DNA from: Candidatus Sumerlaeia bacterium
GTDB lineage: Bacteria > Sumerlaeota > Sumerlaeia > SLMS01 > JAHLLQ01
Reading direction: 5' to 3'
Assembly: GCA_028284075.1 (NCBI GenBank)
Contig: JANQSL010000056.1
Coordinates: 4,564 to 68,563, forward strand
DNA length: 64,000 nt
Positions within the stretch are counted from its first letter, which is position 1. Each line of letters starts with the position of its first letter. This document shows positions 38,571 through 60,420 of the stretch, in pieces. The notes beneath the pieces were generated by a model. That model was not told the DNA's origin, did not search any database, and saw only the letters and a list, made by a program, of their open reading frames with translations. The translations under genes were made by a program, and so were the position numbers.

Positions 38571-38673
38571 GACCTGCCCGTAGTCTCGGTGGCCGCGTTC
38601 GAATGGCGTGCCGCCCGTATTGTCTGCCAACCTTCGGGATTTCGATCCCGTTGATTGCGAAAGGAATGACGAC

Positions 38674-39192: not shown

Positions 39193-39740
39193 ACGTCGAC
39201 GTTCAAGCGGCGAAGGTATACGGCGAGGCGCTCTTCAGCGCCGCGAGGGATCAGGGCATTGTTCCGGCGATTCGCGAAGAGACAGCCGTCCTTGCTGAAG
39301 CCACCGCTGCTGTTCCCCGTTTCCGGACGTTGATGGAGGCACCGCACATCCCCACGGATGACAAGGTCACCATCATCGAGCGGGTTATCGGGGATCGCAT
39401 GCAGCCTTTACTGAAAAACTTCATTCTGCTCCTTTTGCGCCGAAACCGGGTGGAAGTTTACCGCAGCGCTCTGGACGAGTTTAATCGTCTGGCGGACAAG
39501 GACCTTGGTATTTCCCGTGCATCGCTGACCAGTGCGCGGGCGCTGGACGACGAAGAAAAGACCCGTTTGCAGTCCGCTCTTGAGCGGCAAACAGGGTTGA
39601 AACTGACCCTGGACCACAAAGTGGACCCCGTGCTCATCGGCGGACTTGTCTTTGAGTGCGGTGATCTGATGATCGACAACAGTCTGAAAACCCAGCTTTC
39701 CCGGCTGGGAGACAAGCTGATGGCCGCTCGGGTGATCTGA
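39189..39740 (+). CDS. atpH: F0F1 ATP synthase subunit delta
   Basis: OSCP/delta family pattern. ATGA overlap with atpF. Confidence 0.9.
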   Translation: MNVDVQAAKVYGEALFSAARDQGIVPAIREETAVLAEATAAVPRFRTLMEAPHIPTDDKVTIIERVIGDRMQPLLKNFILLLLRRNRVEVYRSALDEFNRLADKDLGISRASLTSARALDDEEKTRLQSALERQTGLKLTLDHKVDPVLIGGLVFECGDLMIDNSLKTQLSRLGDKLMAARVI

Positions 39741-39791
39741 TTCCCGGCGGGAACCCCCGGACGGCGGAGCTGTCCGAACATCGTACGGAGT

Positions 39792-41309
39792 GTGGCAATG
39801 GCCTTACGCGCTGACGAAATTGCGTCCGTTCTCAAATCCGAGCTTGAGAGCTTTGATCGTTCTCTGGAAGTGGAGAATGTCGGAAAAGTTCTGCGGGTCG
39901 GTGATAATATCGCCACCGTTTATGGCCTTGAGAAGGCCATGATGGGCGAGCTGCTGGAGTTTCCCCACGGAATCAGGGGCATGGTGTTGAACCTTGAAGA
40001 AAACTCCGTTGGTGTTGCTCTGTTCGGCTCCGACGCGCAGATCAAAGAAGGGGATGTCGTTCGCGGCACGGGACAAATCGCCTCGGTTCCGGCCGGCGAA
40101 GCCCTTGTTGGCCGTGTTGTCGACGCTCTGGGCAACCCTATCGACGGCAAAGGGCCCATTCCGGCGAAGGAAACCCGCCGCATCGAAATCAAGGCACCGG
40201 GCGTTCTTGCACGCAAGTCCGTACACGAACCCCTGATGACGGGCCTGAAGGCCATCGACTCCATGATTCCCATCGGCCGCGGTCAGCGCGAGTTGATCAT
40301 CGGCGATCGCCAGACCGGCAAGACCACCGTCGCCATCGATACGATCATCAACCAGAAGGGCCAGGGTGTTTACTGCTTCTATATAGCGATTGGCCAGAAG
40401 CAGTCCTCCGTCGCCGCCGTCGTCGAAACGCTCGAGAAGCACGGAGCCATGGAGTACACCACAGTTGTCTCCGCCTCCGCGGACGATCCGGCCTCCATGC
40501 AGTTCATCGCGCCGTACACCGGCGTGACCATGGCGGAGTACTTCCGCGACTCGTCTCGCCACGCTCTTTGCATCTATGATGACCTGTCCAAGCAGGCCGC
40601 CGCTTATCGTACACTTTCTTTGCTTCTGCGTCGCCCTCCGGGCCGCGAGGCATATCCCGGTGACGTCTTCTATCTCCACTCCCGCCTGCTTGAGCGTGCG
40701 GCAAAATTAAGCGACGATCTTGGCGCCGGTTCATTAACAGCTCTCCCCATCATTGAGACTCAGGCGGGCGACGTATCAGCTTACATTCCAACGAACGTGA
40801 TTTCAATTACTGACGGCCAGATTTACCTGGAGCCGGACCTGTTCTACAAGGGTGTGCGTCCTGCCATCAACGTTGGTCTGTCTGTGTCCCGTGTGGGCGG
40901 TTCGGCACAGACGAAGGCGATGAAGAAAGTCGGTGGCAAGCTTCGCCTGGAACTCGCTCAGTTCCGCGAACTGGAAGCCTTTGCCAAGTTCGGCTCTGAT
41001 CTGGACAAAGCCACACAGCAGTCTCTGACGCGCGGTGCACGCCTCGTCGAGATTCTGAAACAGGGTCAGAACGTACCGATGTCACTTTCAAGGCAGGTCG
41101 TGCAGATTTTTGCCGGCACCAACGGCTATTGCGACAAGGTGGATGCCGAGAAGACACAGGCATACACAACCGGGCTGCTGGCCTTCATCGAGGAAAAGTA
41201 TGCAGATGTGCTGCACACCATCGATGAGCAGAAGGTGCTCGATGACGCGACCACCGAGAAGCTCCACAAGGCGTGCAAGGAATACCTCGACGAGTTCAAC
41301 AAGGACTAA
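39792..41309 (+). CDS. atpA: F0F1 ATP synthase subunit alpha
   Basis: P-loop GDRQTGKT and alpha-subunit signature. 505 aa. Confidence 0.97.
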
Positions 41310-41332
41310 GCGACCCGCTACGGAACTGATTC

Positions 41333-42211
41333 ATGGCCAAGGGCATCAAAGAGCTTCGTCTTCGCGTTCGTTCCATCAAGGGAACGAAGAAGATCACACG
41401 CGCCATGGAGATGGTCTCGGCGGCCAAGCTTCGCCGCGCGCAACAGGAGATGAACGCAGCGCGACCCTTTACACGAAAACTGCAGGTTCTTCTTGGCCGT
41501 CTGGCGCTTAGCCCCACGGCGCAGGAGCACCCGTTGTTTGAGTTGCGCGAGGAGGAAAACCTTCCTTCTCTCCTGCTGTTTGTGACCTCTGATCGCGGTC
41601 TCTGCGGAGCCTACAACGCGAATCTGATCAAAGCCGCTGAGCGCTATATGAGAGAGCATCCCGACGCATTGATGTACTGTGTCGGTCGAAAGGGTTTTGA
41701 ATACTTCCGCAAGCGCGTTCCCCAGCGCATCATCGGCCAGACGCTGGATTTGAATACGAAGCTTGACGGTGAAACCACGGATCAGGTCGGGAACCTGCTC
41801 CTCGAGCAGTTCAACGGCCGTAAGGTGGGGGAGATCAACATCATTTCCGCGGAGTTTGTCTCCGCGTCGACCAACCGCCCTCAGACGCAACGCTACCTGC
41901 CACTTGAGGCAAAAGCGTTCGGCCTTTCCAGCGAGGAGGCGGACAAGCCGATTGACTATCTGTTGGAGCCGTCGCCGGAGCGGGTTTTCGATGCACTGTT
42001 GCCGACCTATCTCCGCAACGTCATCTATCTGACCCTCGCGGAAGCCTTCACCAGCGAGCATTCATCGCGAATGCTTGCCATGAACGCGGCGACGAAGAAC
42101 TGCGACGAACTTGCGGAAAGCCTGACACTGCAGATGAACAAGGCCCGTCAGGCGGCCATCACCACGGAAATTATTGAAATCGTCAGTGGCGCTGCGGCGC
42201 TCGAAGGCTGA
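41333..42211 (+). CDS. atpG: F0F1 ATP synthase subunit gamma
   Basis: MAKGIKELRLRVRSIKGTKKITRAMEMVSAAKLRRAQ N-terminus and the conserved C-terminal helix. Confidence 0.95.
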   Translation: MAKGIKELRLRVRSIKGTKKITRAMEMVSAAKLRRAQQEMNAARPFTRKLQVLLGRLALSPTAQEHPLFELREEENLPSLLLFVTSDRGLCGAYNANLIKAAERYMREHPDALMYCVGRKGFEYFRKRVPQRIIGQTLDLNTKLDGETTDQVGNLLLEQFNGRKVGEINIISAEFVSASTNRPQTQRYLPLEAKAFGLSSEEADKPIDYLLEPSPERVFDALLPTYLRNVIYLTLAEAFTSEHSSRMLAMNAATKNCDELAESLTLQMNKARQAAITTEIIEIVSGAAALEG

Positions 42212-42227
42212 CGGAGATGAACTGTAA

Positions 42228-43703
<1,476 letters not shown>

Positions 43704-45581: not shown

Positions 45582-46643
45582 ATGAGGATCGTTTTGACCG
45601 TGAAATGTGCGCAGGCAGGTTACGGATACTGGGGCAGAAACCTGATGCGGTGTTTCTCATCCGCACGAAACTGTGAATTGACCGTTTGCTGTGAGCCCGA
45701 AACGAATCTTCATGATCAAATACGAAGCCAATATCCAAACGTACGGAACATCGACATCAATCTGGAAACCACGCTGGAGCGGCCTGAAATCGAAGCCGTT
45801 ATTCTCGCCACACCGGCTGCCCTTCATCATCAACAGGTGAAATGCTGCCTGGAGGCGGGAAAACACGTTTTTGTCGAGAAACCCCTGGCGACGTCCACGA
45901 AGCAGTGTGAAGAGCTTGTGAGTCTTGCTGACGGCAAGGGCTTGACACTGATGGTTGGTCATACGTTTTTGTACAACGACGCCGTTCGATGGATAAAAAA
46001 CTTCATTGATCAGGGAGAGCTCGGAAACGTTCAGTACATCTACTTTCAGCGACTTGCGCTTGGACGTGTCCGCAAGGATGTGAACGTGCTCTGGAACCTG
46101 GCTCCGCACGATGTGTCGATCGCATTGTATTGGCTTGGTGAGTTTCCCCGCGAGGTTCTCTCGACCGGCCAGGATTTCCTTCAGAGTGGAATCGATGACA
46201 TTTCCTTTCTTAACATGAAATTCCCCAGTGGAAGATTCGTTCAGGTTCACGTTAGCTGGCTCGACCCGAGCAAAACAAGAAAAGCCGTTGTTGTGGGCAG
46301 TCGTAAAATGCTGGTTTACGATGATTGCTCGCCCGATCAGAAAATCACCGTCTACGACAAGGGATTTGATGTCGATGGCAAGCCTCAGGACATCGGTTCG
46401 CGCCCCTTTGACAGCTTCGGTGACTTTTCGCTCATCCAGCGCGTTGGCGACATCTCGATACCCAGAATCTCATTTCGCGAGCCACTCCAGGTCGAAGCGC
46501 AGCATTTCGTGGACAGTGTTACGACCGGCGGGAAACCACTGAGTGACGGGAGGTCCGGAGCTGGCGTCGTTGCCGTGCTTGAGGCCGCGAGCGATTCCCG
46601 GAGGAGGAAAGCAGCTGTCGAGTTGTCTTCCCTCAGTCTATGA
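45582..46643 (+). CDS. Gfo/Idh/MocA family NAD(P)-dependent oxidoreductase (WbpB-like sugar 3-dehydrogenase candidate)
   Basis: N-terminal Rossmann fold (AGYGYWG) and a conserved EKP motif (VFVEKPLA). Followed by acetyltransferase and aminotransferase genes. Confidence 0.85.
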   Translation: MRIVLTVKCAQAGYGYWGRNLMRCFSSARNCELTVCCEPETNLHDQIRSQYPNVRNIDINLETTLERPEIEAVILATPAALHHQQVKCCLEAGKHVFVEKPLATSTKQCEELVSLADGKGLTLMVGHTFLYNDAVRWIKNFIDQGELGNVQYIYFQRLALGRVRKDVNVLWNLAPHDVSIALYWLGEFPREVLSTGQDFLQSGIDDISFLNMKFPSGRFVQVHVSWLDPSKTRKAVVVGSRKMLVYDDCSPDQKITVYDKGFDVDGKPQDIGSRPFDSFGDFSLIQRVGDISIPRISFREPLQVEAQHFVDSVTTGGKPLSDGRSGAGVVAVLEAASDSRRRKAAVELSSLSL

Positions 46644-47293
46644 ATGCTCCTCCCTTTTCCACTATTCACCCGAATGTTCATCTCGGAGAGAACTGCAGAC
46701 TGGACAGCCACGTCGTCCTTGGGACTCCTCCGGACCGGAGCGAGCCGGGGGAGCATGCACTTCGAATAGGAAGGGACTCAATAATCCGAAGCCATACCAT
46801 CATCTATGCAGGGAATCGGATCGGACATGGCTTTGTTACGGGTCACTATGTGTTTATCAGGGAAGACAATACGATCGGAAACGATGTTTCCATCGGGACT
46901 CACACTGTTATCGAACATCACGTAACCATCGGTAACGGCGTTCGGCTTCATTCACAGGTCTTTGTGCCGGAATTCTCGGTTTTGGAAGAGGGCTGCTGGA
47001 TCGGGCCCAATGTGGTTCTGACCAACGCTCCTTATCCGAAGGCTCCGCGCGTGAAAGAATTCCTGAATGGACCTTGTATTTGCCGTTCAGCGGTTGTCGG
47101 AGCAAATGCCACCCTTCTTCCCGGAGTCGTTATTGGCGAAGGGGCGCTTGTTGGGGCGGGAAGCGTGGTTACCTGCAACGTGGCTCCCCTGACCGTGGTT
47201 GCAGGGAATCCCGCCCGGAAAATCAAGGATGTGGCGGACCTGAAACACCCTGACGGTGACAAAGCGTATCACCACGAGGCGTTCAATGTCTGA
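46640..47293 (+). CDS. Hexapeptide-repeat (left-handed beta-helix) sugar N-acetyltransferase (WbpD/WlbB-like)
   Basis: Repeated [LIV]G-x4 hexapeptide motifs throughout. ATGA overlap with the upstream gene. Confidence 0.85.
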   Translation: MNAPPFSTIHPNVHLGENCRLDSHVVLGTPPDRSEPGEHALRIGRDSIIRSHTIIYAGNRIGHGFVTGHYVFIREDNTIGNDVSIGTHTVIEHHVTIGNGVRLHSQVFVPEFSVLEEGCWIGPNVVLTNAPYPKAPRVKEFLNGPCICRSAVVGANATLLPGVVIGEGALVGAGSVVTCNVAPLTVVAGNPARKIKDVADLKHPDGDKAYHHEAFNV

Positions 47294-48395
47294 CATGCCA
47301 ATTCCGCTCGTCGATCTCAAGGCTCAGCTGCGTGGCATACGCACTGAGATCGATTCCGCAATATCGGAAACTCTCGATCAAACAGCCTTTATCATGGGCG
47401 ATCGCGTCAGAAGGTTCGAGCGTGAATTCGCCAAGTATTGCGGGACATCTCATGGAGTTGGCGCAAGTTCGGGAACAACCGCACTCCACCTCGCGCTTGT
47501 TGCTGCAGGAGTTGGCCCGGGCGACGAGGTTATCACCGTATCACACACGTTTATTGCAACTGCAGAGGCCATTCTTCATTGCGGGGCGATTCCCGTTCTT
47601 GTGGATGTCGATCCTGAAACCTATACCATGGATCCGCAACGTCTTGAAGAAGTACTCACTTCGGCAACGAAGGCGATCATTCCGGTACATCTCTACGGTC
47701 AGTGCGCGGACATGACCGCCATCAGTGCCTTTGCAAGTACTCACGGCCTGAAGGTTATCGAGGATGCGGCTCAGGCTCATGGCGCAATGTGGGAAGGAAA
47801 GATGGCGGGGGCGATTGGCGAGGCAGGCTGCTTCAGCTTTTTCCCTGGCAAGAATCTGGGCGCCGCAGGAGACGGAGGGGCGGTTGTCACCAATAACGAT
47901 CAGATGGCGGAGCGAATGAGTTCGCTGGCAAACCACGGACGCCAGACAAAGTACCTTCACGATGTGTTGGGGTTCAACTACCGCCTCGATGCCCTCCAGG
48001 CCGCCGTGCTCAGTGTCAAACTCAGGTATCTTGACGATTGGACTGATCGTCGTCGGGGGGCCGCGAAGCGGTACAACGAATTGCTGCGGGATCTGCCGGT
48101 GGAGTTGCCGGTCGAGCGCGACAGACACGTCTACCACCTCTATGTTATACAATGCGATCGCAGGGATGAACTGCTCGCATTGATGAAGTCTCGAAACATT
48201 TTCGCGGGAATTCATTATCCGATTCCACTGCACAAGCAGCCGTGCTTTCTTTCAGGCGAGGCTGTCCGCAGCGGACCGATGCCGGTGACAGAGAGAGTGG
48301 CGGATCGGATTGTTTCTCTTCCACTGTTTCCGGAGATAACCTCCGAACAACAGGAGCGCGTGACTGAATCGATTCACGATTTCTTTCGTGCGTGA
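47256..48395 (+). CDS. DegT/DnrJ/EryC1/StrS family PLP-dependent aminotransferase (WbpE-like)
   Basis: Family pattern including the lysine-containing segment FSFFPGKNLGAAGDGG. The likely start is MSDMPIPLVDL near 47286. Confidence 0.9.
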   Translation: MTKRITTRRSMSDMPIPLVDLKAQLRGIRTEIDSAISETLDQTAFIMGDRVRRFEREFAKYCGTSHGVGASSGTTALHLALVAAGVGPGDEVITVSHTFIATAEAILHCGAIPVLVDVDPETYTMDPQRLEEVLTSATKAIIPVHLYGQCADMTAISAFASTHGLKVIEDAAQAHGAMWEGKMAGAIGEAGCFSFFPGKNLGAAGDGGAVVTNNDQMAERMSSLANHGRQTKYLHDVLGFNYRLDALQAAVLSVKLRYLDDWTDRRRGAAKRYNELLRDLPVELPVERDRHVYHLYVIQCDRRDELLALMKSRNIFAGIHYPIPLHKQPCFLSGEAVRSGPMPVTERVADRIVSLPLFPEITSEQQERVTESIHDFFRA

Positions 48396-48464
48396 CAGAG
48401 ATAAATGCAGGCAGATGTCTTCGCCTCTTTGCAACAATCAATCAGGCGATCCGGGGAACAAGCC

Positions 48465-49424
48465 ATGTCCGTTGAAAACAAAAAGATACTTGTAACCGGA
48501 GGAGCCGGTTTCATTGGCAGTCATATTGCGGATGAAGCTCTTCGCCGGGGAGCGTCCCGCGTTGTTATTCTGGATAATTTTGTAAACGGTAAGCAGCAAA
48601 ACATTGCTCACCTCGCTGGCGATTCACGCATAACCATCGAGTCCGGCGATGTACGGGACTTTGACACGGTTCGGCCTCTCGTTCAGCAGGCTGATATCGT
48701 TTTTCATGAAGCTGCCTCAAAGCTCGTGGTCTCTCGCACAAGGCCGAGAATTGACCTGGAAACGAACATTGTAGGCACCTTCAATGTTTTGGAGGCGGCA
48801 AAGGATGGAGGACAGCTTGTCGTCCATGCTTCGACCGGATCCGTTCTTGGCAGCAGCGAAGGGGAAATGCACGAGGACCATCCGCAGAATCCGACCACAC
48901 TCTACGGAATCAGCAAGGGTTGCGGTGAGCGCTACTGTCGGTTTTATGCCGCGGAGTTCGGAGTTCGAGTCGCCATGCTCCGTTATTTCCATGTCTTTGG
49001 GCCGCGACAGGATTACTCCGGAGAAGCAGGCGTTGTAAGTATTTTTCTTGGCCGTGTCCTGCGAGGTTTGCCTCCGGTTGTGTTTGGTACCGGAGAACAG
49101 ATCCGTTGTTTCACCTGGGTTCTCGATGATGTGGCGGCCAACTTCCTGCTCCTTGATAGGATTGAGGGCGACGAGTGCCTGGGCCAGGTTCATAACGTCG
49201 CATCACGGACACGCATCAGTGTTCTTGATCTGGCGAACACCATTATCGAACGGTTCGGACCGAAAGGGCTTGAAGTCGAGTTCGGTCCTCCACGGCCGGG
49301 AGAAAATCTTCGTCCCGTCCCGAACACGGAGAGGATTGAGAGACTCGGATTCAAGGAGTCCGTTTCCTTTTCCGAGGGACTTGAGGCAACCTGCGAGTGG
49401 GTAAAAAAGGATCTCGGTTTGTGA
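48465..49424 (+). CDS. NAD-dependent epimerase/dehydratase (short-chain dehydrogenase/reductase family)
   Basis: TGGAGFIGSH Rossmann fold and a YxxxK motif (YGISK). Start MSVENKKILV inside ORF 48405..49424. Confidence 0.9.
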   Translation: MSVENKKILVTGGAGFIGSHIADEALRRGASRVVILDNFVNGKQQNIAHLAGDSRITIESGDVRDFDTVRPLVQQADIVFHEAASKLVVSRTRPRIDLETNIVGTFNVLEAAKDGGQLVVHASTGSVLGSSEGEMHEDHPQNPTTLYGISKGCGERYCRFYAAEFGVRVAMLRYFHVFGPRQDYSGEAGVVSIFLGRVLRGLPPVVFGTGEQIRCFTWVLDDVAANFLLLDRIEGDECLGQVHNVASRTRISVLDLANTIIERFGPKGLEVEFGPPRPGENLRPVPNTERIERLGFKESVSFSEGLEATCEWVKKDLGL

Positions 49425-51214: not shown

Positions 51215-51640
51215 ATGAGATTCGAGAGGTTCAGTAAATACTCAGTTGTTTCCGGTATCAGCTTCGGCATGAATTTCGGACTTACGGCGGCGCTTTGTCA
51301 GTTGATGGCTCTTCCCGAGGAGACGGCTTTCGCGATCGCTCTCGCATCCGTCTTTACCATGAATTTTCTGTTTATGCGCCACTGGGTATATGACGATCGT
51401 CTTTCCACGACCGACGGCATTCGACAATTTCGCTTCTGCATTATCGTGAGCTGCTTCTTCAGAATGGCGGAATGGCTCTCCTTCGTCCTGCTGAACTGGT
51501 TGTTGGTTCTGCACTATCTTGTCATCTTGACCATTGTGACAAGTGGGTCATTCACAATAAAGTTCTTTGTATACGATCGGCTGGTCTTTGCCTCCGGGAA
51601 CACGGCGGCGGGGGACAAGAGGCTGGAGTCAAATACGTAA
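51215..51640 (+). CDS. GtrA family membrane protein
   Basis: A small four-helix protein with GtrA-like pattern. Adjacent to the GtrB-like GT2 gene. Confidence 0.75.
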   Translation: MRFERFSKYSVVSGISFGMNFGLTAALCQLMALPEETAFAIALASVFTMNFLFMRHWVYDDRLSTTDGIRQFRFCIIVSCFFRMAEWLSFVLLNWLLVLHYLVILTIVTSGSFTIKFFVYDRLVFASGNTAAGDKRLESNT

Positions 51641-51708: not shown

Positions 51709-52419
51709 ATGAAACACTCTGAACTCAGACGGGAGGTTTGTTTGCTCAATCGGCGCATAGTCGACTCCGGCCTTTCAATGCTGACATGGGGGAATGCGAG
51801 CATTGTCGATCGAGCGTCAGGCTGTTTCGGAATCAAACCGAGCGGTGTTGCCTATGATGATCTCACTGAAGACTCCATCGTCGTGCTGTCAATTGAGACA
51901 GGGGATAAAATCGAGGGCCCACTGAGACCCTCCTCAGATACACCTACGCATCTGGAGCTTTATCGCTCGATTCCCGGACTTGGAGCCATTGTGCATACGC
52001 ATTCTCCCTGGGCGACCATCTGGGCTCAGGCTCGGATGGAGATACCGTGCTTTGGCACAACCCACGCCGATCATTTTTTTGGCCCCATTCCCGTGACACG
52101 CGAGATGCACCCCGATGAAATCAGGAACGACTATGAGCACAATACAGGCCGCGTGATTATTGAGAAATTCTCCAGTGACGGAATCAATCCACTGGAGGTT
52201 CCCGCCGTTTTGGTGGCTTCCCACGGCCCATTCGTATGGGGTAAAAATGGGAACGAGGCGCTCGACAATGCGGTGGTGCTTGAACAGGTGGCAAAGATGG
52301 CCTTGCAAACCGGCAGATTGAACCCTGATGCGGGGCCACTCAGTGAAGCTTTGCTTTCGAAGCATTTTTTGCGCAAACACGGCAAGTCAGCGTACTACGG
52401 CCAGCCCGACGAGCAATAG
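51709..52419 (+). CDS. Class II aldolase/adducin family protein (L-ribulose-5-phosphate 4-epimerase AraD-like)
   Basis: AraD/FucA-like pattern including the HTHSPWAT metal-binding region. 236 aa. Confidence 0.8.
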   Translation: MKHSELRREVCLLNRRIVDSGLSMLTWGNASIVDRASGCFGIKPSGVAYDDLTEDSIVVLSIETGDKIEGPLRPSSDTPTHLELYRSIPGLGAIVHTHSPWATIWAQARMEIPCFGTTHADHFFGPIPVTREMHPDEIRNDYEHNTGRVIIEKFSSDGINPLEVPAVLVASHGPFVWGKNGNEALDNAVVLEQVAKMALQTGRLNPDAGPLSEALLSKHFLRKHGKSAYYGQPDEQ

Positions 52420-52550: not shown

Positions 52551-53273
52551 ATGCCCCCGCGGAAAAAGGTTCGGCTCAGCATTGTCCTGCCATGTTACAA
52601 CGAGGCACGTGGAATACGACGACTGCTGGATCAGTATAAGGAAGCCGGAAAAGGAATTCGCTTTGAACTGATCCTTGTGGACAATGGATCCACCGACGAC
52701 ACTCAGTCCGTTCTGCAGGACCTTCTTCCCGAGTATCCGTTTGCCCGTTGTGTGAGAATTGTTCAGAACCAGGGTTATGGACACGGGATTTTTACAGGAC
52801 TCTCAGAGGCAAGAGGAGATATTCTCGCCTGGTCTCATGCTGATCTGCAGACTCATCCGAAGGACGTCTTTCGATCTTTGAGGAAATTCAGAAAGTGCGG
52901 TTGTCCCGCAAGGCTTGTTGTTAAGGGGCAAAGATACGGGAGAGCTCCGGGAGAATGGATTATCAGTCGCGGAATGGAAATCGTTGCGATGGTTCTTCTG
53001 AGGCGTTTTATCGGTGAAATCAATGCACAGCCAAAGCTGTTTCGAAGAGAGTTGATGGACGAGCTTGAGGATCCTCCTGTCGATTTTAATTTTGATGTTT
53101 ATGTTCTGTACAAGGCTCTTCAGAGCGGTTGGAGGATATCATCCATACCGGTACGTTTTCCGCCTCGCGAGTACGGTGAAAGCAACTGGTCGGCGACCTG
53201 GAAATCGAAGCTTCGGACCATCACAAAAAGCATTCGTTTCATGGCTCGGCTCGGAGGAGGCGGTGTCAATTGA
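52551..53273 (+). CDS. Glycosyltransferase family 2
   Basis: LSIVLPCYNEA...LVDNGSTDDT...HADLQ motifs. Confidence 0.85.
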   Translation: MPPRKKVRLSIVLPCYNEARGIRRLLDQYKEAGKGIRFELILVDNGSTDDTQSVLQDLLPEYPFARCVRIVQNQGYGHGIFTGLSEARGDILAWSHADLQTHPKDVFRSLRKFRKCGCPARLVVKGQRYGRAPGEWIISRGMEIVAMVLLRRFIGEINAQPKLFRRELMDELEDPPVDFNFDVYVLYKALQSGWRISSIPVRFPPREYGESNWSATWKSKLRTITKSIRFMARLGGGGVN

Positions 53274-53899
53274 CCTGGTGGTTTTTCGCTCTTCAACCTG
53301 AGCAGAGTCTTTACGACAGAGTTTCCCGGCTCAAGGAACAGGCGGCCCTTCAATGCGGACCACAGCTTTATCTCACGGACCCTCCCCATACCACGGTGTA
53401 TCTTGCCTGCTATGAAGCGGCTGAGAGAGTTCATGAGGCCATGTCAGGTTTCTCCGAGTCACGTCCCGGTCCTCCAGAGTGCAGGATCACCGGATGGCAT
53501 GTTTTTCAATCTGACCCTCTCACGGGGAACGATACCCTTGTTTGCAGGTTGAGCGAGGATTGCACGAACTCTCTTCGGCTTTTCCAAAAGAACCTGGTGG
53601 AGGCGGCGGCTCCGCTCAGAAGTATAGCCGGAACGGCACAGCGCTATGCAGCCCGTCTTGAAAAGCTGACTCAGCCTGAGCGTGCGAACATCGACCATTA
53701 TGGATTTCCGTTTGTCGGAGATGTCTGGCAGCCTCACATAACAATCGCTTCCTTCGTTCCAGCGGATCTGGTCCGGTGTTTTCCCGTTCTTGAGGACGGT
53801 TGTCCGACTGGCGGCTACACCTACAGTACTCTGGTGCTTTATCGACTCAGGGACGGTGTCCCTGTCGTGGAGAGAACCCTCGCTCTGGAGCCATCCTAG
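53270..53899 (+). CDS. 2H phosphoesterase superfamily protein (LigT/2',3'-cyclic phosphodiesterase-like)
   Basis: Two H-x-T/S-x motifs (PHTTVY and PHITIAS), with a LigT-like N-terminus and length. Confidence 0.6.
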   Translation: MTWWFFALQPEQSLYDRVSRLKEQAALQCGPQLYLTDPPHTTVYLACYEAAERVHEAMSGFSESRPGPPECRITGWHVFQSDPLTGNDTLVCRLSEDCTNSLRLFQKNLVEAAAPLRSIAGTAQRYAARLEKLTQPERANIDHYGFPFVGDVWQPHITIASFVPADLVRCFPVLEDGCPTGGYTYSTLVLYRLRDGVPVVERTLALEPS

Positions 53900-53952
53900 T
53901 GCGCTTTTCCACCCGAGCACGGACTCTTTTTCGTCCTGCAACAACTGTTTCC

Positions 53953-55062
53953 ATGCTTGCCAGCCTGGTAAGCGGGAAGAGGCGGGCCCCGCTTGGCATC
54001 CAGTTGCGACGCATTATCGCCTGGTTGTCCTGGCGGTACAGATACCTTGTCGGATTTACTGTCATCGGTTTTCTGTCGATTGCTCTGGAGGTGTTTCTCT
54101 GGATGAAGGTTTGGCCGGATACCTGGTCGCAGGATCTCGGCATGTCAGTGGCGTTTATGGTGGGCCTTGCCGCGGCATTCTATGGAAATGCAAAACTGAA
54201 CTTTCGTGTCTCCCGTCGGTTCTGGTGGTATTCCTTCGGAATATTCACGCTGATTTCCTTCTTCAGCCTGGCGCTCCAGCTTGGAATCATGCACAATTTG
54301 GAAGACGTTTCGTGGGGTACTTTTCCTCTCTCGCGATTCGCCGTCTCCGGATCGCTTTTCCTGTTCATCTACTATCTTCACAGCCGATTTGCTTTCCGCC
54401 GATCAATGAAAAACCTCGGAATTGCAGTCTATGTCGAGCCTGACTGCAAGGTGTCGGATATCTATTCAAGCGTTGGTGATCAGTGTGACCATATTCACAT
54501 AGATCTGGTCGATCACACATTTCGGGAGGATGCCGTGGTCGATCTGAAGGTTTTACGGAAAGCGAAACAAACCTGGCCCTGGCATCCTTTCTGTGCTCAT
54601 CTCATGACTCGCCACCCGGTTCGGTGGATTCGGAAAATGTGGAAGCACGTTGATCTGTTCCTCATTCACCTTGGCATCGAAGATGATCCGATGGAAGCGA
54701 TCGCGGTCTGCCGTTCCAAAAACAGGCTCGTCGGTATCGTGTGGAACTCCGGACAGAAGATTGGCGACATGCTTCCCTATCTGCCTCACGTAGACGTCGT
54801 GATGGTTCTTGGAATTGAGAAGCCCGGTTATTCCGGCCAGCCTGTTCTTCCACAGGCTTATCACTATGCCACACTTCTCTTTGAGCTGGCGAATCGATAT
54901 GGTTTCGAACTGGCATTCGACGGAGGAGTGAACCGCAAGACGATCCATCAGATTCCGGCAAACATCATTACCTCGTCCTCAGCCGTACTCCAAAGCGAGA
55001 ACCCGATCTTCTCAATCTACGAACTTGTCTCCGGTGGCGGGCGGCATGACAGCAAACACTGA
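53953..55062 (+). CDS. Fusion protein: N-terminal GtrA-like four-helix membrane domain plus C-terminal ribulose-phosphate 3-epimerase (RPE) family TIM-barrel domain
   Basis: C-terminal RPE signature HIDLVD...HLMTRHP...VDVVMVLGIEKPGYSGQ...FDGGVN. The N-terminal ~150 aa is GtrA-like. Start MLASLVSG inside ORF 53800..55062. Confidence 0.7.
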   Translation: MLASLVSGKRRAPLGIQLRRIIAWLSWRYRYLVGFTVIGFLSIALEVFLWMKVWPDTWSQDLGMSVAFMVGLAAAFYGNAKLNFRVSRRFWWYSFGIFTLISFFSLALQLGIMHNLEDVSWGTFPLSRFAVSGSLFLFIYYLHSRFAFRRSMKNLGIAVYVEPDCKVSDIYSSVGDQCDHIHIDLVDHTFREDAVVDLKVLRKAKQTWPWHPFCAHLMTRHPVRWIRKMWKHVDLFLIHLGIEDDPMEAIAVCRSKNRLVGIVWNSGQKIGDMLPYLPHVDVVMVLGIEKPGYSGQPVLPQAYHYATLLFELANRYGFELAFDGGVNRKTIHQIPANIITSSSAVLQSENPIFSIYELVSGGGRHDSKH

Positions 55063-56566
55063 CATCAAGTCTCTCATTCGCGAGGCAATCTGGACGGTTG
55101 GAAAGACACATGACGAAATTGTGTCCGTCACTTTGGTGGGAAGCTTTACCTCCGGAGAAGGCCTTGATGGAATATCCGACATCGATACCATCGTTATTGT
55201 GGACTCGTTGAGCAAGCGTTCATTCGACCTCATTTGTGAGTCCTTCCGGCAGCGGGTTTCCCCCGTCGTCGAACAGGCGGGGTACAGTCTTCGCATCAAC
55301 CCGACACTCGGGCCTCTAAAGTTTAACGATGCGCGAACTGCAGTTCTTCATTTGATGTTCTACACACGGGAAACACACCGAAGGCATGTGATTTCCAGCC
55401 CGTTCACCTGTCTCGACTGGCAAAATTCGCCAATCTTTATCAAGGAATCACTGAGGAGTGTTTATCCCGCCTGGAGGCTTCAGCCAAGACACTTTCTGGG
55501 AGCGAGGCGAAGCCCGAAGGAATACCTCGGAGACTTCCTGAAGAGCCGAATCGGCTATCGGAAATATGAGTTTGATCAGAATGGGCACAGCGAGGTGCTG
55601 TGCTATCAGGAGATGAGCACACGCGATCGCCACGAATTCGCCTATCACATCATGAAGTTTTTGATGTCGAATCTGTGCAAGCTGGTTCAGCGAATGGACG
55701 AGGCACCCTGTTCCGAGGATCTGCCACAAGAGTACTTCAGGAGTTTTCCAGCAGGTGAAAGAGAGTTTACCCGACTCTTCAGACTTTTGGAAAGCAAAAA
55801 ACACTCACTTGATTTTGAAGAACCGGTCATTCGACTCGACGAAATCGTCATTTCGTTTGTCGAGGAATTTCAAAGGCAGTTCGAGCAGGAATTTGTAACG
55901 GATTCAACTGTGCATCTTGCAGTTCGGCACGCCCCGACCTCAATGAATCTATTGCCGTCCGGCGGGGTTGTTTTTCAGGGATGTCGCTCCAATCCATCCA
56001 TCCTGCCACCCGACCCGGCGGCTCTCGAGGCACTCGCGGAGAGTCTTTCCGGGCACAAAATAGAGAAAGCGATTTGCTCGCCGCTCGCCCGTGCCATGGA
56101 AACCATTGATGCAGTCTCAAGGTTTCTGGACTTCGAGATGGTGAAGCACGTTGATCAGAGGCTGACCGAGATGGACTATGGTGATCTGGACGGCAGCCGG
56201 CTTGAGACGGCAAAAGCAATGTGCCCCGGGCTTTTTGCTGCCTGGGGTCGTGGGGAGGATCCTCCCTTTCCGGGAGGTGAGTGCTCTCTCGATGTCAGTC
56301 GGCGTGTTTTACCCTGCATTGAGGAACACTTGCATGCCGCCGCTCCGGCCGGCGTACTGGTTACACACAACGTTGTTTTGCGTGTATTGACGGGCCAGAG
56401 TCTGGGAGTTCCGATGTCGGACTGGTACAGGATCAAAATCCCTCACCTTGAGCCCTTGCGTATTGTGTCGACCAAACGTTTCGGAATCTTTGTGGATCTC
56501 GATTCCAACCAGGAATCAGACATGTTCTCCGGCTTTGCTTCTCCCGGGGGAGGAGTTGAGCGCTAA
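55046..56566 (+). CDS. Fusion protein: polymerase-beta-like nucleotidyltransferase domain plus C-terminal histidine phosphatase (phosphoglycerate-mutase-like) domain
   Basis: N-terminal GSFTSGEGLDGISDIDTIVIV (GS...DxD) motif. C-terminal RHAPT...LVTHNVVLRV with histidine-phosphatase branch-1 pattern. Confidence 0.7.
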   Translation: MTANTDIKSLIREAIWTVGKTHDEIVSVTLVGSFTSGEGLDGISDIDTIVIVDSLSKRSFDLICESFRQRVSPVVEQAGYSLRINPTLGPLKFNDARTAVLHLMFYTRETHRRHVISSPFTCLDWQNSPIFIKESLRSVYPAWRLQPRHFLGARRSPKEYLGDFLKSRIGYRKYEFDQNGHSEVLCYQEMSTRDRHEFAYHIMKFLMSNLCKLVQRMDEAPCSEDLPQEYFRSFPAGEREFTRLFRLLESKKHSLDFEEPVIRLDEIVISFVEEFQRQFEQEFVTDSTVHLAVRHAPTSMNLLPSGGVVFQGCRSNPSILPPDPAALEALAESLSGHKIEKAICSPLARAMETIDAVSRFLDFEMVKHVDQRLTEMDYGDLDGSRLETAKAMCPGLFAAWGRGEDPPFPGGECSLDVSRRVLPCIEEHLHAAAPAGVLVTHNVVLRVLTGQSLGVPMSDWYRIKIPHLEPLRIVSTKRFGIFVDLDSNQESDMFSGFASPGGGVER

Positions 56567-57339
56567 TGGAATATCAGATTGTCGTACCGATGGCGGGCGA
56601 AGGACAAAGATTCCGAGATGCCGGCTTCAGCGTTCCCAAGCCTTTGATCCCCGTGGGAAATGTTCCCATGGTTGTTCGAGTCATAAGAGACCTGCCCGCG
56701 GCATGTCGTGTGATTTTTCTTGCGAGAAGCGCACATCTTGAAAATTACCCTCTTGAGGAGGAGCTTAAAAGAGAGGTGCCTGACGCCGTTGTTGTCCCCG
56801 TTAGGGAACTGACTGAAGGGCAGGCCTGCACAGTACGCCTCGCAGCTGACTCACTTCTGTCGGACTGTCCCGTTATCGTTGCGGCATGCGACAACACACA
56901 TCTCTACAATCTCGAACTGCATGACCGACTGATGGCGCCCGGTGGTCCGGAGTGTCTTGTCTGGACCTATCGAAACGATTCTCGCGTTCTGCCCAATCCG
57001 AACCAGTTTGGGTGGGTCGTTGAGGAAGACGGTGATGTCATCCGTGTTTCCTGTAAGGAGCCTGTTTCAAGGAGACCGATAGCGGATCATGCCTTGAGCG
57101 GTTTTTTCACATTTCGGAGTCCGGCAATCATGATCGAGGGGATCGATGCTCTTGTGAGAAGCGATGAGCGCATCAACGGCGAATTCTACATGGATGTTGT
57201 GCCGAATCTTCTCATTGCCCAAGGGCACAGAGTAAGCGTCTTTGAAGTGGAGAAATATGTCGGATGGGGAACCCCGCAGGACTTAAGGGACTACAACCTG
57301 TGGGCTGAATACTTTGGCCGGACGGAGTCGGGTGGATAG
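56566..57339 (+). CDS. Sugar/polyol-phosphate cytidylyltransferase-like nucleotidyltransferase (IspD/TarI/LicC-like)
   Basis: N-terminal VVPMAGEGQRF...VPKPLIPV matches the IspD/TarI-type signature. Coupled start (ATGG) with the upstream gene. Confidence 0.7.
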   Translation: MEYQIVVPMAGEGQRFRDAGFSVPKPLIPVGNVPMVVRVIRDLPAACRVIFLARSAHLENYPLEEELKREVPDAVVVPVRELTEGQACTVRLAADSLLSDCPVIVAACDNTHLYNLELHDRLMAPGGPECLVWTYRNDSRVLPNPNQFGWVVEEDGDVIRVSCKEPVSRRPIADHALSGFFTFRSPAIMIEGIDALVRSDERINGEFYMDVVPNLLIAQGHRVSVFEVEKYVGWGTPQDLRDYNLWAEYFGRTESGG

Positions 57340-57389: not shown

Positions 57390-58109
57390 ATGCTCTTCGA
57401 AATCGCCAAAAACAGTTTTTTTCTGCAGAATGCCGTCGTCAATATTGTAACAGGCATACATCCCTCCATCATGCATAATCTGGGCAAGATGGAAATCATC
57501 AAGAAAGCCCTGTTTCACTGTGAACTTGAAGACATCCAGGGGAGTTATTTTGAGTTTGGAGTGTTCGAGGGAACGTCACTTCTTGCGGCGGTCAAGGCGC
57601 ATGGCGCCATCAAGTCGAAGATCAGGCGTCGATTTTATGGATTCGACTCCTTCGACGAGGGTTTCAAGTACTTTCAGGAGGATGATAATCACCCCTTCTT
57701 CAAGGAAGGCGACTTCACAAGCTCATTCAAGAGAGTCAAAAAACGGCTCTCTCGTTACCACAACATCAAGTTGATCAAAGGCTACTTTGAGAAAACGGTG
57801 AAAGGCCGGCCTCGGGAGGAAATCTGTGGCTCTGACAGATGTGCTGTCTTGTTCATTGACTGTGACCTGAAGGGTCCCGCCGCCATCGCCCTCGAATTCG
57901 CACGCCCACTCCTGCAGAAGGGCAGTGTGATCATTCTTGACGATTACTGGGCTTACCGCGGCTCGATGAAAAAGGGGACTGCTGGAGCACTCGAGGAGTT
58001 TCTGGGTGAGCACGGCGGGATTGAGGTTCGCCGGTATCACGACTATGGATACGGTGGTGCTTCCTTTATCGTCACCGCCTGTCCTGAGAACGAGGAGAAA
58101 GCCTCGTGA
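57390..58109 (+). CDS. TylF/MycF/NovP-family O-methyltransferase-like protein
   Basis: EFGVFEGTSL (SAM motif I) and FIDCDL...IILDDY pattern. GC is lower than the upstream genes. Confidence 0.65.
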   Translation: MLFEIAKNSFFLQNAVVNIVTGIHPSIMHNLGKMEIIKKALFHCELEDIQGSYFEFGVFEGTSLLAAVKAHGAIKSKIRRRFYGFDSFDEGFKYFQEDDNHPFFKEGDFTSSFKRVKKRLSRYHNIKLIKGYFEKTVKGRPREEICGSDRCAVLFIDCDLKGPAAIALEFARPLLQKGSVIILDDYWAYRGSMKKGTAGALEEFLGEHGGIEVRRYHDYGYGGASFIVTACPENEEKAS

Positions 58110-58708
58110 AGTATATCGTTCATCGCGTCAATGATCCGGACCGGCTCGAGTCGCTGGACCCCTCCATGGGAGTTGAAATCGACCTGAGAGACAAGGGAGG
58201 GCGGTTGATTATGGAGCACGACCCTTTCTCTGACGGCCCCGACTTCGATGGATATCTTGCCCGCTATCGCCACGACACGATGATCTTGAACATCAAGAGC
58301 GAGGCGATCGAATGGCGGGTTCTGGAGGAGATTCAAAAAGCCGGAACAGTTCGCGACTACTTCTTTCTGGACAGCAGCTTTCCCATGATCATGAAGCTCG
58401 TCGCAAAGGGCGAAAGAAGAGTGGCCGTACGCTTCAGCGAACGTGAGCCCATCGAATATGCGCTGGCATTGGCCGGGAAAATTGACTGGGTCTGGGTGGA
58501 TTGCTTTACCCGGTTGCCTCTCGACGGGACATCCTATCCTCAGCTCAAGAAGCACTTCAAGATCTGTATCGTTTCGCCGGAACTTCAGGCCCACTCTCTG
58601 GATCGGATACCTGAGTTCGCACAGATCCTTGCCGAGATGCCGGTCGACGCCATCTGTACAAAGCGGCCGGAGCTCTGGGACGCGGCTCTGAACGGAAAAA
58701 CACAGTAA
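58106..58708 (+). CDS. Glycerophosphodiester phosphodiesterase (GDPD/PI-PLC-like) family protein
   Basis: N-terminal HR...E.D catalytic pattern (IVHRVNDPDRLES...EIDLRDKGGRLIMEHD). ATGA overlap with the upstream gene. Confidence 0.55.
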   Translation: MKYIVHRVNDPDRLESLDPSMGVEIDLRDKGGRLIMEHDPFSDGPDFDGYLARYRHDTMILNIKSEAIEWRVLEEIQKAGTVRDYFFLDSSFPMIMKLVAKGERRVAVRFSEREPIEYALALAGKIDWVWVDCFTRLPLDGTSYPQLKKHFKICIVSPELQAHSLDRIPEFAQILAEMPVDAICTKRPELWDAALNGKTQ

Positions 58709-58737: not shown

Positions 58738-60420
58738 GTGATGGGACGCATCGTGGCAATTCTTCAAGCCTGCTACCGCTTTGTATCCCCTCGCCTGGCC
58801 ATTGTCAGCCTCATGGCTGCGACTCTGCTGGCCTTTCTGTTTCACGTCGGTTTTCGAATCAACTACAACACTGCCCACATCGATCGCTATCACCAGGATG
58901 AGGCCCATACCATCTACTGGGGGATAACATACATCAAGGATGGGAAAATTCCGGCTTTCAGAGCTCTCGAAACGAGCCGATGGATTGCACGGAGCGCCTA
59001 CCCTCTCGCTCTTGTCTATATGAATCAGAGGATGGGCGGCAATGTCTGGACCGATACATGGAATTACCCCGGACACCGATACATTCTTGCACGTTATATT
59101 CCTCAGCCGGACATGGCCGACCCGAACCTTCGTGACTTCTTCTATGCAATGAGATTGTGTTACGTTCTTCTGACGTTTGCCAGCTTCCTTCCCCTGTTCT
59201 GGATGGCCTATCGTTACGGCTATCATCTTGTTCCCTGGGGTATGGCTGTTTGTCTCGGTCTCAACATACCGACAATCAACGAACAGTCCATCTTCTACAT
59301 CGAACCGTCCATGATCATCTTTATCAACCTGATGATCGCTTATTTCCTGTATTGCCTTTCGAAGGAGCGGTTTTCTCTCGGATTTTCCATCGTTTACGGA
59401 ATTGCCGGGGCGGCAATGGTATGTACAAAACCATCAACCGTCTTTTATCTCTGCCTTCCTGTCATCAGTGTTTTCAACTTCTGGAAGCATCATTCGGACA
59501 AAGAGCGGACGCTTCAGATCTGTATTGGCATATTGGTTTTTGCCGCAGCGTTTTATTGCATCAATATCCCCGCATGGCAGAACAACATCATGCGAAACAT
59601 GTTGATTCACGATGTAACATCAAATTTCTGGAACTACAGTACTCTTGGCAACGTGGAGCCCGGGCGTCCTCATTTTCTCAGGGTCTACCCTCTTCTCGCA
59701 GGCCTCTTTGGATTGGGAGTGTTTATGTTCTTCCCTGTCGTTATAGGGGGCCTTGTGACAGGAAAACGTGTGGATCGCATAATCCTCTCGGTTCTGTTGG
59801 GAATTTGCATGATCTCGATTCTCGCCCTGATCAAGCAGCGTTTTTTTTCCATCAGAAACTACGTGCCTTATTTTCCATCACTCGTTTTCGTTGTTTTCAC
59901 CGCGCTTTCAATTATCGCACGATGGAGTCTTTCGCAAGCCGACGCATCGAGAAAATGGCTTGGTCTTGGGACAGTTGGTCTTTTTATTGTCATGTGTCTC
60001 TTTGGAATTTTCCGACAGTCTGGCGGCAGTGTTTCCGCATTCGCGCGTCAGATTCACCCGGACCCGGAAGATGGACTTGTTGAGCGTTGTCGTGTTATTG
60101 GGACGCTTGACGGCAACCTTGGTTTTTTCGTCGTTGGTGCTGACCGGGCTCGAAAAGACGAGCTCAGTCAGCACATCGACTTTGTGGAACTGGAGGATGT
60201 TCCTCCGTTCCTTTCAAAGCAGTCATTTCCTGAGTACATTAAAGAAACCGCTGCAACCCTGGCAGGCCGGAACGGTGTTCTTGTCAAAAGGACCGGCAAT
60301 AATTTTCAGCTGACAAACTATCTCCTGCCCAGGCTGTACAGCAAAAACGAACAGTTTGGAGCTTACTACCTCTTCTACAGTCCCCGTGTTCTCGAAAACG
60401 AAGCTGCGCAAGAGCAATAA
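58738..60420 (+). CDS. Polytopic membrane protein, putative GT-C fold lipid-linked-sugar glycosyltransferase (ArnT/PMT-like)
   Basis: 560 aa with more than 10 transmembrane helices and aromatic-rich periplasmic loops. Sits in a cluster with a polyprenyl-P GT2 and GtrA genes. Confidence 0.55.
   Translation: MMGRIVAILQACYRFVSPRLAIVSLMAATLLAFLFHVGFRINYNTAHIDRYHQDEAHTIYWGITYIKDGKIPAFRALETSRWIARSAYPLALVYMNQRMGGNVWTDTWNYPGHRYILARYIPQPDMADPNLRDFFYAMRLCYVLLTFASFLPLFWMAYRYGYHLVPWGMAVCLGLNIPTINEQSIFYIEPSMIIFINLMIAYFLYCLSKERFSLGFSIVYGIAGAAMVCTKPSTVFYLCLPVISVFNFWKHHSDKERTLQICIGILVFAAAFYCINIPAWQNNIMRNMLIHDVTSNFWNYSTLGNVEPGRPHFLRVYPLLAGLFGLGVFMFFPVVIGGLVTGKRVDRIILSVLLGICMISILALIKQRFFSIRNYVPYFPSLVFVVFTALSIIARWSLSQADASRKWLGLGTVGLFIVMCLFGIFRQSGGSVSAFARQIHPDPEDGLVERCRVIGTLDGNLGFFVVGADRARKDELSQHIDFVELEDVPPFLSKQSFPEYIKETAATLAGRNGVLVKRTGNNFQLTNYLLPRLYSKNEQFGAYYLFYSPRVLENEAAQEQ

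Follow-up and report, generated by a model that had tools for sequence, protein, structure and literature searches.

A stretch of 64,000 nucleotides from a Candidatus Sumerlaeia bacterium (GenBank assembly GCA_028284075.1, contig JANQSL010000056.1, positions 4,564 to 68,563 of the forward strand), referred to here as the window, carries a glycan gene cluster that includes an open reading frame (ORF) at 55046-56566 (+) encoding a 506 aa protein. The protein is a fusion of a nucleotidyltransferase (NTase) domain and a histidine phosphatase domain, and its gene is the target of this analysis. The start is likely to be the ATG at 55046, because alignments with homologues begin there; an alternative TTG start at 55025 would add 7 codons. 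The start of the target gene overlaps the stop of an upstream gene for a GtrA-like membrane domain fused to a ribulose-phosphate 3-epimerase (RPE)-like domain, called GtrA-RPE below, and its stop overlaps the start of a nucleotidylyltransferase gene.

Both halves of the fusion were detected using Pfam, with NTP_transf_2 (PF01909) narrowly passing its gathering score of 21 at aa 21-61 (24.2 bits, E 4.6e-5) and His_Phos_1 (PF00300) at aa 293-468 (96.4 bits, E 2.2e-27; gathering score 21.7). The AlphaFold model of the whole protein has a pLDDT (predicted local distance difference test) of 92 and a pTM (predicted template modelling score) of 0.89. A database search found 260 full-length relatives with 41-48% identity, which are labelled publicly as merely 'histidine phosphatase family protein', 'PhoE' or similar. 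A scan with one genome per species located 80 loci, complete genomes among them (e.g. Limnoglobus roseus PX52). The bacterial loci are from Planctomycetota, Verrucomicrobiota, Bacteroidota, SAR11/Pelagibacterales, Actinomarina, Gemmatimonadota, Neomarinimicrobiota and one gammaproteobacterium, and the archaeal loci are from the DPANN groups Woesearchaeota, Nanoarchaeota and Pacearchaeota. Given these relatives and loci, the fusion described in the original prediction is genuine and is not the assembly artefact that had been considered as an alternative. A literature search found no description of the fusion architecture, or of the gene module described below.

The C-terminal domain (aa 288-506; 55907..56566, +) belongs to branch 1 of the histidine phosphatase superfamily, with which its profile matches, catalytic set and fold all agree. 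Residue conservation was assessed in an alignment of 77 bacterial and archaeal fusion proteins, with tblastn identities to the query down to 26%. Within the motif R294-H295-A296...R349...E375...H441, residues R294, H295, R349, E375 and H441 are invariant in 76 of 76 relatives, and the catalytic histidine, singled out earlier as a residue to check, is among them; T298 and R446 complete the invariant set for this domain. The best NCBIfam matches of the C-terminal half are CobC alpha-ribazole phosphatase (69.6 bits vs a cutoff of 162.9), PspA and RNase H/acid phosphatase, all far below equivalog cutoffs. PspA, PhoE, CobC and GpgP were found both in a profile search of PDB sequences and by Foldseek against the PDB (E about 1e-12, TMt 0.7-0.8), and cofactor-dependent mutases and PFK-2/FBPase-2 are also among these matches.

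The N-terminal domain (aa 1-286; 55046..55903, +) is predicted from Pfam, an AlphaFold2 model, Foldseek and hhalign to be composed of a Pol-beta-type NTase core and a helical lobe in an AadA-like fold. Its motif is G32-S33-x11-D45-I-D47, i.e. GS-x11-DxD and not GS-x9-DxD as first reported, which fits the pattern hG[GS]-x9-13-Dh[DE]h. The motif is invariant, and the full set of invariant residues comprises S27, G32, S33, D45, D47, N85, G89, P90, K92, H102, M104, Y106, H114, the run S118-P-F-T-C122, D124, W125, R154, R155, E197, H201, N209, K212 and K252. With invariant active-site residues in each, both domains look catalytic. By sequence the N-terminal domain appears to be an isolated family, because the profile search of PDB sequences matched only the phosphatase half of the fusion and gave no match for the N-terminal domain, and because no relative outside the fusion family was evident among the phmmer matches listed. 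With residues 1-288 as the query, phmmer matched 244 proteins among 1.84 billion cluster representatives; the 150 of these that were listed appear to belong to the same fusion family as judged by length and match position, with ten checked using Pfam.

Foldseek with the full-length model returned histidine phosphatases only and was uninformative for the N-terminus, and residues 1-288 were therefore modelled (pLDDT 91.4) and searched separately. The best PDB matches are AAD(9), ANT(3'')(9) and AadA, with E 2.5e-4 to 1e-3, probability 1.0, template modelling scores (TM) of 0.4-0.54 and 9-14% identity; PDB entries for AadA/ANT(3'')(9) and ANT(9) are 4cs6, 5lpa, 7uy4 and 6sxj. Far weaker matches were to CdnD/CdnE (TM 0.2-0.27, probability 0.2-0.8), HalB, FAM46 and MNT. 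LicD, fukutin (FKTN) and FKRP were not among the top 50 PDB matches, and neither LicD nor DUF4111 (PF13427) matched the fusion in Pfam at E<=1. The likeness to antibiotic nucleotidyltransferases, with no LicD-like feature alongside it, speaks against the LicD-like mechanism that was first entertained, but this likeness is itself remote.

The ANT(3'')(9)/AadA architecture combines NTP_transf_2 with DUF4111 (PMC6065190). In AadA, Ser-36, Asp-47 and Asp-49, together with Glu-87, bind ATP as well as two Mg ions, the drug lies in the cleft that separates the NTase domain from the helical domain, and Glu-87 deprotonates the sugar hydroxyl that attacks the ATP alpha-phosphate (PMC6065190). In hhalign, using an aadA1 sequence entered by hand, VTLVGSFTSGEGLDGISDIDTIVIV was aligned with VHLYGSAVDG-GLKPHSDIDLLVTV, and S33, D45 and D47 fell on Ser-36, Asp-47 and Asp-49; the alignment covers residues 23-67, which is the 44-column motif region only. 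No invariant Asp or Glu that might provide a third metal-binding or catalytic carboxylate was found in the 77-protein alignment on the strands at 81-85 or 98-107, where the invariant residues are N85 and H102. The domain is predicted from its model to work like an ANT-type small-molecule nucleotidyltransferase, yet to stand outside that family, as it has no DUF4111 and no obvious Glu-87 equivalent even though the two-lobed layout is the same.

To assess synteny, each neighbour in the window was compared by tblastn with the 80 loci, and counts were restricted to 47 of these, which are flanked on each side by 6 kb or more. Six genes recur with the target gene, nearly all of them in the same orientation. 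The nucleotidylyltransferase gene (56566-57339, +) is present in 47 of 47 loci and GtrA-RPE (53800-55062, +) in 46, followed by an orphan gene for a 200 aa protein (58106-58708, +) and a small family 2 glycosyltransferase (GT2) gene (52551-53273, +) in 42 each, a 2H phosphoesterase gene (53270-53899, +) in 41 and an araD gene (51709-52419, +) in 33. All six partners occur together in 28 of 47. Outside of Planctomycetota, the usual order is AraD, GtrA-RPE, NTase-phosphatase, 2H, nucleotidylyltransferase, GT2, orphan.

Several relatives are joined to module partners in a single protein. The 2H domain is found at the N-terminus in one type (P0036, P0095, P0106 and P0310; loci L018, L020, L022 and L026) and at the C-terminus in another (P0353 and P0383; L060, L070, L074 and L075). 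In DPANN archaea and others, GtrA-RPE is fused directly to the NTase-phosphatase (L037-L039, L042-L044, L046, L058 and L066; P0319 and P0393), and a form with two GtrA domains is also found (P0321, P0323 and P0329). P0314 and P0317 carry NTP_transf_3 at the C-terminal end. Partners are also fused to each other, as 2H-GT2 (L033) and nucleotidylyltransferase-GT2 (L042). The best explanation for these data is that the seven genes form a membrane-associated module, uncharacterised so far, with the target enzyme as its hub. The role in phospho-sugar metabolism that had been deduced from gene position is strongly backed by the near-universal presence of the nucleotidylyltransferase and GtrA-RPE genes and by gene fusions to both partners, and the co-occurrence with the downstream nucleotidylyltransferase gene that the original prediction had proposed to look for holds for every well-flanked locus.

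The flanking genes are largely as first described. GtrA-RPE predicts a GtrA-like transmembrane domain and an RPE-like TIM barrel (Pfam GtrA_DPMS_TM and Ribul_P_3_epim). The TTG start listed for this gene is probably too far upstream, and the true start is probably an ATG near 53953, because homology begins near residue 57-75. The architecture is conserved in 63 relatives, some with two GtrA domains, and relatives of the fused type score up to 112.8 bits for GtrA_DPMS_TM. Although the RPE-like domain has diverged (65 bits), H233, D235, H267, M269, PGxSGQ and D374-G-G, which we take to be the metal-binding and catalytic motifs of RPE, are kept in these relatives. The downstream gene was originally described as IspD-like. 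It does predict a nucleotidylyltransferase (Pfam NTP_transf_3 and NTP_transferase), but its best NCBIfam matches are rmlA_long, Arch_glmU and MurU, and with a conserved AGxGxR...PKP signature it is better described as a sugar-1-phosphate nucleotidylyltransferase of the RmlA/GlmU/MurU type.

The araD product is predicted to be an L-ribulose-5-phosphate 4-epimerase (NCBIfam NF006047, 320 bits vs a cutoff of 257). Its conserved residues N29, K43, S45, G46, S75, D77, H96, H98, D121, H172 and Y230 presumably correspond, offset by one, to the phosphate-binding, zinc-binding and acid/base residues of E. coli AraD. The 2H phosphoesterase is DUF1045-like (Pfam 2_5_RNA_ligase2, and DUF1045 weakly at 28.8 bits) and includes both HxT motifs, H40xT42 and H156xT158, of which H40, T42 and H156 are conserved. 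An additional 2H protein, of the CPDase family (PF07823), is encoded inside the module beside the usual 2H gene in one bacterial locus (L055:9870-10397, +). The small GT2 (Pfam Glycos_transf_2) is predicted to be soluble, with no transmembrane segment detected, and is a candidate polyprenyl-phosphate glycosyltransferase like ArnC or PpgS, though NCBIfam scores for these (52.5 and 28.5 bits, respectively) are far below equivalog cutoffs.

The orphan protein, assigned to the module by synteny, has no match in Pfam or NCBIfam, none in a PDB profile search at E<=10, and Pfam gave no match for 27 members of its family. Clustered at 90% identity, the family makes up at least 7,798 clusters in the database; of the 120 listed, not one has a Pfam domain or is called anything but 'hypothetical'. 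Residues H6, N9, E24, D26, R28, H38, K64, E69, R109, S111, E114, W128, W130 and D132 are invariant. The sequence has eight hydrophobic, strand-like stretches with a polar residue after each, a pattern suggestive of a small enzyme of the TIM-barrel type. Identification as a GDPD/PI-PLC-like phosphodiesterase, from the motif HRxN...E.D.R...HD, is a guess that was set aside, as Pfam and PDB searches and an hhalign comparison with E. coli GlpQ all gave no match.

Three further genes adjoin the module in the window. A 560 aa polytopic membrane protein (58738..60420, +), for which 9 or more transmembrane segments are predicted and which weakly matches WsfD in NCBIfam (23.6 bits vs a cutoff of 80), is a GT-C-like candidate for the final transferase; it is accessory and lineage-specific, and related loci carry other large polytopic proteins with no Pfam matches (e.g. 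L012:6819-8648, L073:6417-8099 and L014:15362-17353). A TylF-type O-methyltransferase (57390..58109, +; Pfam TylF), also accessory, adjoins the module in 4 of the 80 loci. A stand-alone small membrane protein of the GtrA family (51215..51640, +; Pfam GtrA_DPMS_TM), possibly a flippase or accessory protein, had no tblastn match in the 80 loci. By sequence, the TylF methyltransferase and the 560 aa membrane protein are not conserved with the module in the tblastn comparison with the 80 loci, and neither are the other genes of the cluster, namely those for the GFO/MocA oxidoreductase, hexapeptide acyltransferase, DegT aminotransferase, 4,6-dehydratase-type epimerase and S-adenosylmethionine (SAM) methyltransferase.

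The GFO/MocA oxidoreductase, hexapeptide acyltransferase, DegT aminotransferase and NAD epimerase/dehydratase genes lie in a row at 45582-49424 (+) and are a typical N-acylated amino sugar set. In a woesearchaeotal locus, a gene for a B12-binding radical SAM protein (L066:7297-8796, -) lies between module genes, and its ORF family occurs in 4 loci. Immediately upstream of the glycan cluster in the window are ATP synthase genes (a, alpha, gamma and beta; 37160-43703, +) and, farther upstream, a secretin gene (29084-30697, +), indicating that the cluster is chromosomal and on no obvious island. The GC content is about 0.51-0.55 in the glycan cluster and 0.58 in the ATP synthase region.

Taken together, we judge the chances to be about even that the target protein is a bifunctional cytoplasmic enzyme at the hub of a module that makes an activated pentose for decoration of an extracytoplasmic glycan. 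The module most likely constitutes a new route from a pentulose-5-phosphate to a nucleoside diphosphate (NDP)-linked and then a polyprenyl-phosphate-linked pentose, with substrates and an order of steps that we infer. From the D-xylulose/ribulose-5-phosphate of central metabolism, the two epimerases would make an L-series pentulose-5-phosphate. AraD would convert D-xylulose-5-phosphate to L-ribulose-5-phosphate, and the RPE-like domain would convert this to L-xylulose-5-phosphate, a substrate outside of central metabolism being favoured because the enzyme is dedicated and divergent. The AadA-like domain would transfer a nucleoside monophosphate (NMP) from a nucleoside triphosphate (NTP) to a hydroxyl of the sugar intermediate, as AadA does to the sugar hydroxyl of streptomycin, and the resulting phosphodiester would be turned by the 2H enzyme into an anomeric sugar phosphate, with a vicinal cyclic phosphate as the intermediate. 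The histidine phosphatase domain would take off the 5-phosphate, and the RmlA-like enzyme would then form the NDP-pentose. The GT2 and the GtrA/DPMS-type membrane domain may load the pentose onto polyprenyl phosphate, from which the GT-C-type membrane protein would transfer it to the surface glycan. The RmlA-like enzyme would need an anomeric phosphate, and the NTase, 2H, phosphatase and orphan are the sole conserved candidates to provide it. The usual gene order outside of Planctomycetota mirrors this proposed order of steps.

Two variants of the central steps can be drawn. In variant A, an aldopentofuranose-5-phosphate would gain a 1-phosphate and then lose the 5-phosphate to give an aldopentofuranose-1-phosphate. 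In variant B, the phosphatase would act first, freeing O5 so that the ketopentose can close to a furanose, the hemiketal hydroxyl of which would then be nucleotidylated; no isomerase would be needed. Variant B makes the fused domains catalyze consecutive steps, and this fits the gene order and the fusion partners. A more specific proposal, which we consider rather unlikely, is that the NTase, 2H and phosphatase together perform a kinase-free, mutase-free anomeric phosphorylation of a pentofuranose or ketopentofuranose (L-xylulose, L-ribulose) that is independent of phosphoribosyl pyrophosphate (PRPP). An NMP would be transferred to a sugar hydroxyl, transesterification would give the vicinal cyclic phosphate, this would be opened regiospecifically to leave the anomeric phosphate, and the 5-phosphate would be removed. 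Abundant aquatic bacteria (SAR11, Planctomycetota, Bacteroidota and Verrucomicrobiota) and DPANN archaea would then have a PRPP-independent route to NDP-linked and polyprenyl-phosphate-linked pentoses, which could also account for the activation of ketopentoses for glycans.

Some background is consistent with these steps. 2H enzymes form and open cyclic phosphates, and the CPDase of plants and yeast converts ADP-ribose 1'',2''-cyclic phosphate to the 1''-phosphate. PhnN is a ribose-1,5-bisphosphate kinase. Genes for DUF1045-type 2H proteins adjoin phnN in 86% of the carbon-phosphorus (C-P) lyase operons that have them (PMC3266647), an adjacency that fits a 2H enzyme opening a pentose 1,2-cyclic phosphate. 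The known pathways to lipid-linked pentofuranoses all use a dedicated phosphatase to take off a 5-phosphate (PMC11127046), and ketopentose (xylulose) residues occur in bacterial glycans (PMC8707391).

Several points weigh against the proposed pathway, in which the activity, substrate and product of every module member are predicted. AraD is absent within 10 kb in 14 of the 47 loci. No aldose-ketose isomerase was identified, and variant A would need the orphan or the RPE-like domain perhaps to act as its source. The likeness to AadA is remote, as judged by the Foldseek scores and by the 44 columns aligned in hhalign. An acidic equivalent of AadA Glu-87 is not evident in the alignment, where the candidates for this position are the invariant N85 or H102, and for this reason the nucleophile might be a phosphate instead of a hydroxyl, or a different chemistry may apply. 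An NDP-sugar or a lipid-linked intermediate would be just as plausible a substrate of the phosphatase, and the GT2 and GT-C assignments are based on matches below curated cutoffs.

The fusion could be accounted for in other ways. LicD and fukutin are in the same broad nucleotidyltransferase fold class and have a DxD motif, and an enzyme of this kind, as raised in the original prediction, would transfer pentitol or pentose phosphate to a glycan from a cytidine diphosphate-linked donor made by the neighbouring cytidylyltransferase, with the phosphatase trimming the product. The constant adjacency of a nucleotidylyltransferase gene agrees with this, but that gene is RmlA/GlmU-like, ANT enzymes lead the top 50 structural matches, which lack LicD, FKTN and FKRP, LicD is not matched in Pfam at E<=1, and the GS...DxD NTP-binding motif aligns with that of AadA (again with the hand-entered aadA1). 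A scan of the window genes and the recurrent ORF families also found no pentitol-making reductase in the module, and only a slight chance is left to a LicD-like transferase. A somewhat better though still small chance is given to the phosphatase domain being a phosphomutase that, like dPGM, converts a 5-phosphate to a 1-phosphate via the bisphosphate, the NTase and 2H merely making or priming the bisphosphate cofactor. The downstream nucleotidylyltransferase needs a sugar-1-phosphate, and the His_Phos_1 superfamily includes the cofactor-dependent mutases seen among the PDB matches. However, the best family and structure matches are the phosphatases CobC, PspA, PhoE and GpgP, a mere priming role would not readily account for a stoichiometric fusion to an NTase, and we know of no pentose mutase in this superfamily.

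Regulatory proteins are known that combine opposing activities in a single chain, and PFK-2/FBPase-2, which is among the matches, has the same layout with a C-terminal histidine phosphatase. In a writer/eraser of this type, or like GlnD, the NTase would control the pathway by making an effector or modification, phosphorylated or nucleotidylated, which the phosphatase would remove. The fusions to RPE, 2H and nucleotidylyltransferase and the strict operon membership point instead to a stoichiometric pathway step, and Pfam found no sensor or regulatory domain in the module; we rate this marginally below the LicD-like transferase. Both the phosphomutase and the regulatory explanations match the fusion pattern less well than does a biosynthetic enzyme acting on the pentose. 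Lastly, an antibiotic-resistance enzyme of the ANT type, or a CD-NTase-like enzyme of anti-phage defence or signalling, might lie in a glycan cluster by chance. Although ANT(3'')(9)/ANT(9) are the top structural matches, with CdnD, CdnE and HalB weaker, sequence identity to the ANT enzymes is low, DUF4111 is missing and the CD-NTase TM values are poor. The setting in a glycan module is found in 47 of 47 loci across phyla, DPANN archaea included, and the neighbours of the fusion are all sugar-metabolism genes according to Pfam and NCBIfam. PADLOC found no match for the fusion or its neighbours, plasmid and viral-contig collections had no match to the fusion, and phage matches cover the phosphatase part only. 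These searches speak against an origin in defence or in a mobile element, including the nucleotide-signalling or defence role that had earlier been kept in view, and chance residence of such an enzyme in the cluster is the least probable of the alternatives.

If the proposed chemistry holds, the combination of AraD/RPE-type epimerases, an AadA-like NTase, a 2H enzyme and a histidine phosphatase upstream of a classical step from NDP-sugar to polyprenyl phosphate would represent a new form of pentose activation, possibly of ketopentoses. We know of no described activation route for ketopentoses. To our knowledge, the lipid-linked pentoses whose formation is understood, such as those for mycobacterial arabinan and for the Citrobacter-type side-chain systems, are made from PRPP by means of a UbiA-type transferase. 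The proposed chemistry would also give a function to two large unannotated families, the fusion protein and the 200 aa orphan. As carriers of the module include very abundant aquatic microbes as well as DPANN archaea, which depend on hosts, its surface sugar may matter for recognition by phages and grazers and for marine dissolved organic matter. That the chemistry itself is of a new kind is possible but the less likely case.

Each single fold, and the downstream logic of NDP-sugar, polyprenyl-phosphate sugar and GT-C transferase, is already known, whereas the upstream enzymology and the fusion are uncharacterised. With AadA/ANT(3'')(9) and ANT(9) the N-terminal domain shares the two lobes, a Pol-beta NTase core and a helical domain, and the GS...SDID motif that aligns with the hand-entered aadA1. 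It differs in having no DUF4111, a TM of about 0.5, N85/H102 in place of an evident Glu-87 and an attached phosphatase. The drug-binding residues of AadA, Trp-112, Asp-182, Trp-173 and Asp-178, fall outside the hhalign span, and there is no Glu at the expected strand position. AadA enzymes also confer resistance to streptomycin or spectinomycin and belong to a mobile or integron context, whereas the fusion is found in a chromosomal glycan operon and has no plasmid homologues.

The C-terminal domain has the fold of CobC, GpgP, PspA and PhoE and their full RH...R...E...H set. The terminal phosphate that CobC removes is at a ribosyl 5'-position, and the one that GpgP (Rv2419c) removes is on a glycoside. 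Unlike these enzymes, the phosphatase of the fusion scores far below the equivalog cutoffs and is always joined to an NTase domain. 6-phosphofructo-2-kinase/fructose-2,6-bisphosphatase is also a bifunctional chain with a C-terminal histidine phosphatase, and handles a furanose with anomeric and terminal phosphates, but its N-terminal part is a P-loop kinase and not an NTase, and it is regulatory and not a member of a biosynthetic operon. The module 2H protein resembles the CPDases that act on ADP-ribose 1'',2''-cyclic phosphate and the DUF1045 proteins of C-P lyase operons in having both HxT motifs and a DUF1045 match. However, this match is weak, and the setting is glycan synthesis instead of phosphonate catabolism or tRNA splicing.

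Like the GtrA/GtrB/GtrC, ArnC/ArnT and DPMS systems, the module includes a transmembrane domain of the GtrA/DPMS type, along with candidates for the GT2 polyprenyl-phosphate glycosyltransferase and for a polytopic transferase. It differs from GtrABC and ArnC-ArnT in that its GtrA-like domain is part of a fusion with an RPE-like enzyme (which in archaea takes in the NTase-phosphatase as well), that the GT2 has no transmembrane segment of its own, and that the donor sugar would come from a dedicated upstream pathway. The PRPP systems, which are the mycobacterial decaprenyl-phospho-arabinose pathway and the PPPRS-PRP/MATE flippase/GT136 systems (Kelly et al. 2024, PMC11127046), convert a cytoplasmic pentose phosphate to a polyprenyl-phosphate-pentose using a dedicated 5-phosphatase, auxiliary epimerases, a flippase-like protein and a GT-C (PMC11127046), and the module would share this logic. 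Among the genes at 44-61 kb of the window, no UbiA-type phosphoribosyltransferase and no HAD or PAP2 phosphoribose phosphatase was found, and the same domains were absent from ten recurrent ORF families scanned from related loci. The NTase and 2H enzymes of the module have no counterpart in the PRPP systems. Its phosphatase is of the His_Phos_1 type and not HAD or PAP2, its epimerases, AraD and RPE, would act on ketose phosphates, and, in place of the UbiA-type phosphoribosyltransferase, the RmlA-like enzyme and the ArnC-like GT2 imply a route through an NDP-sugar.

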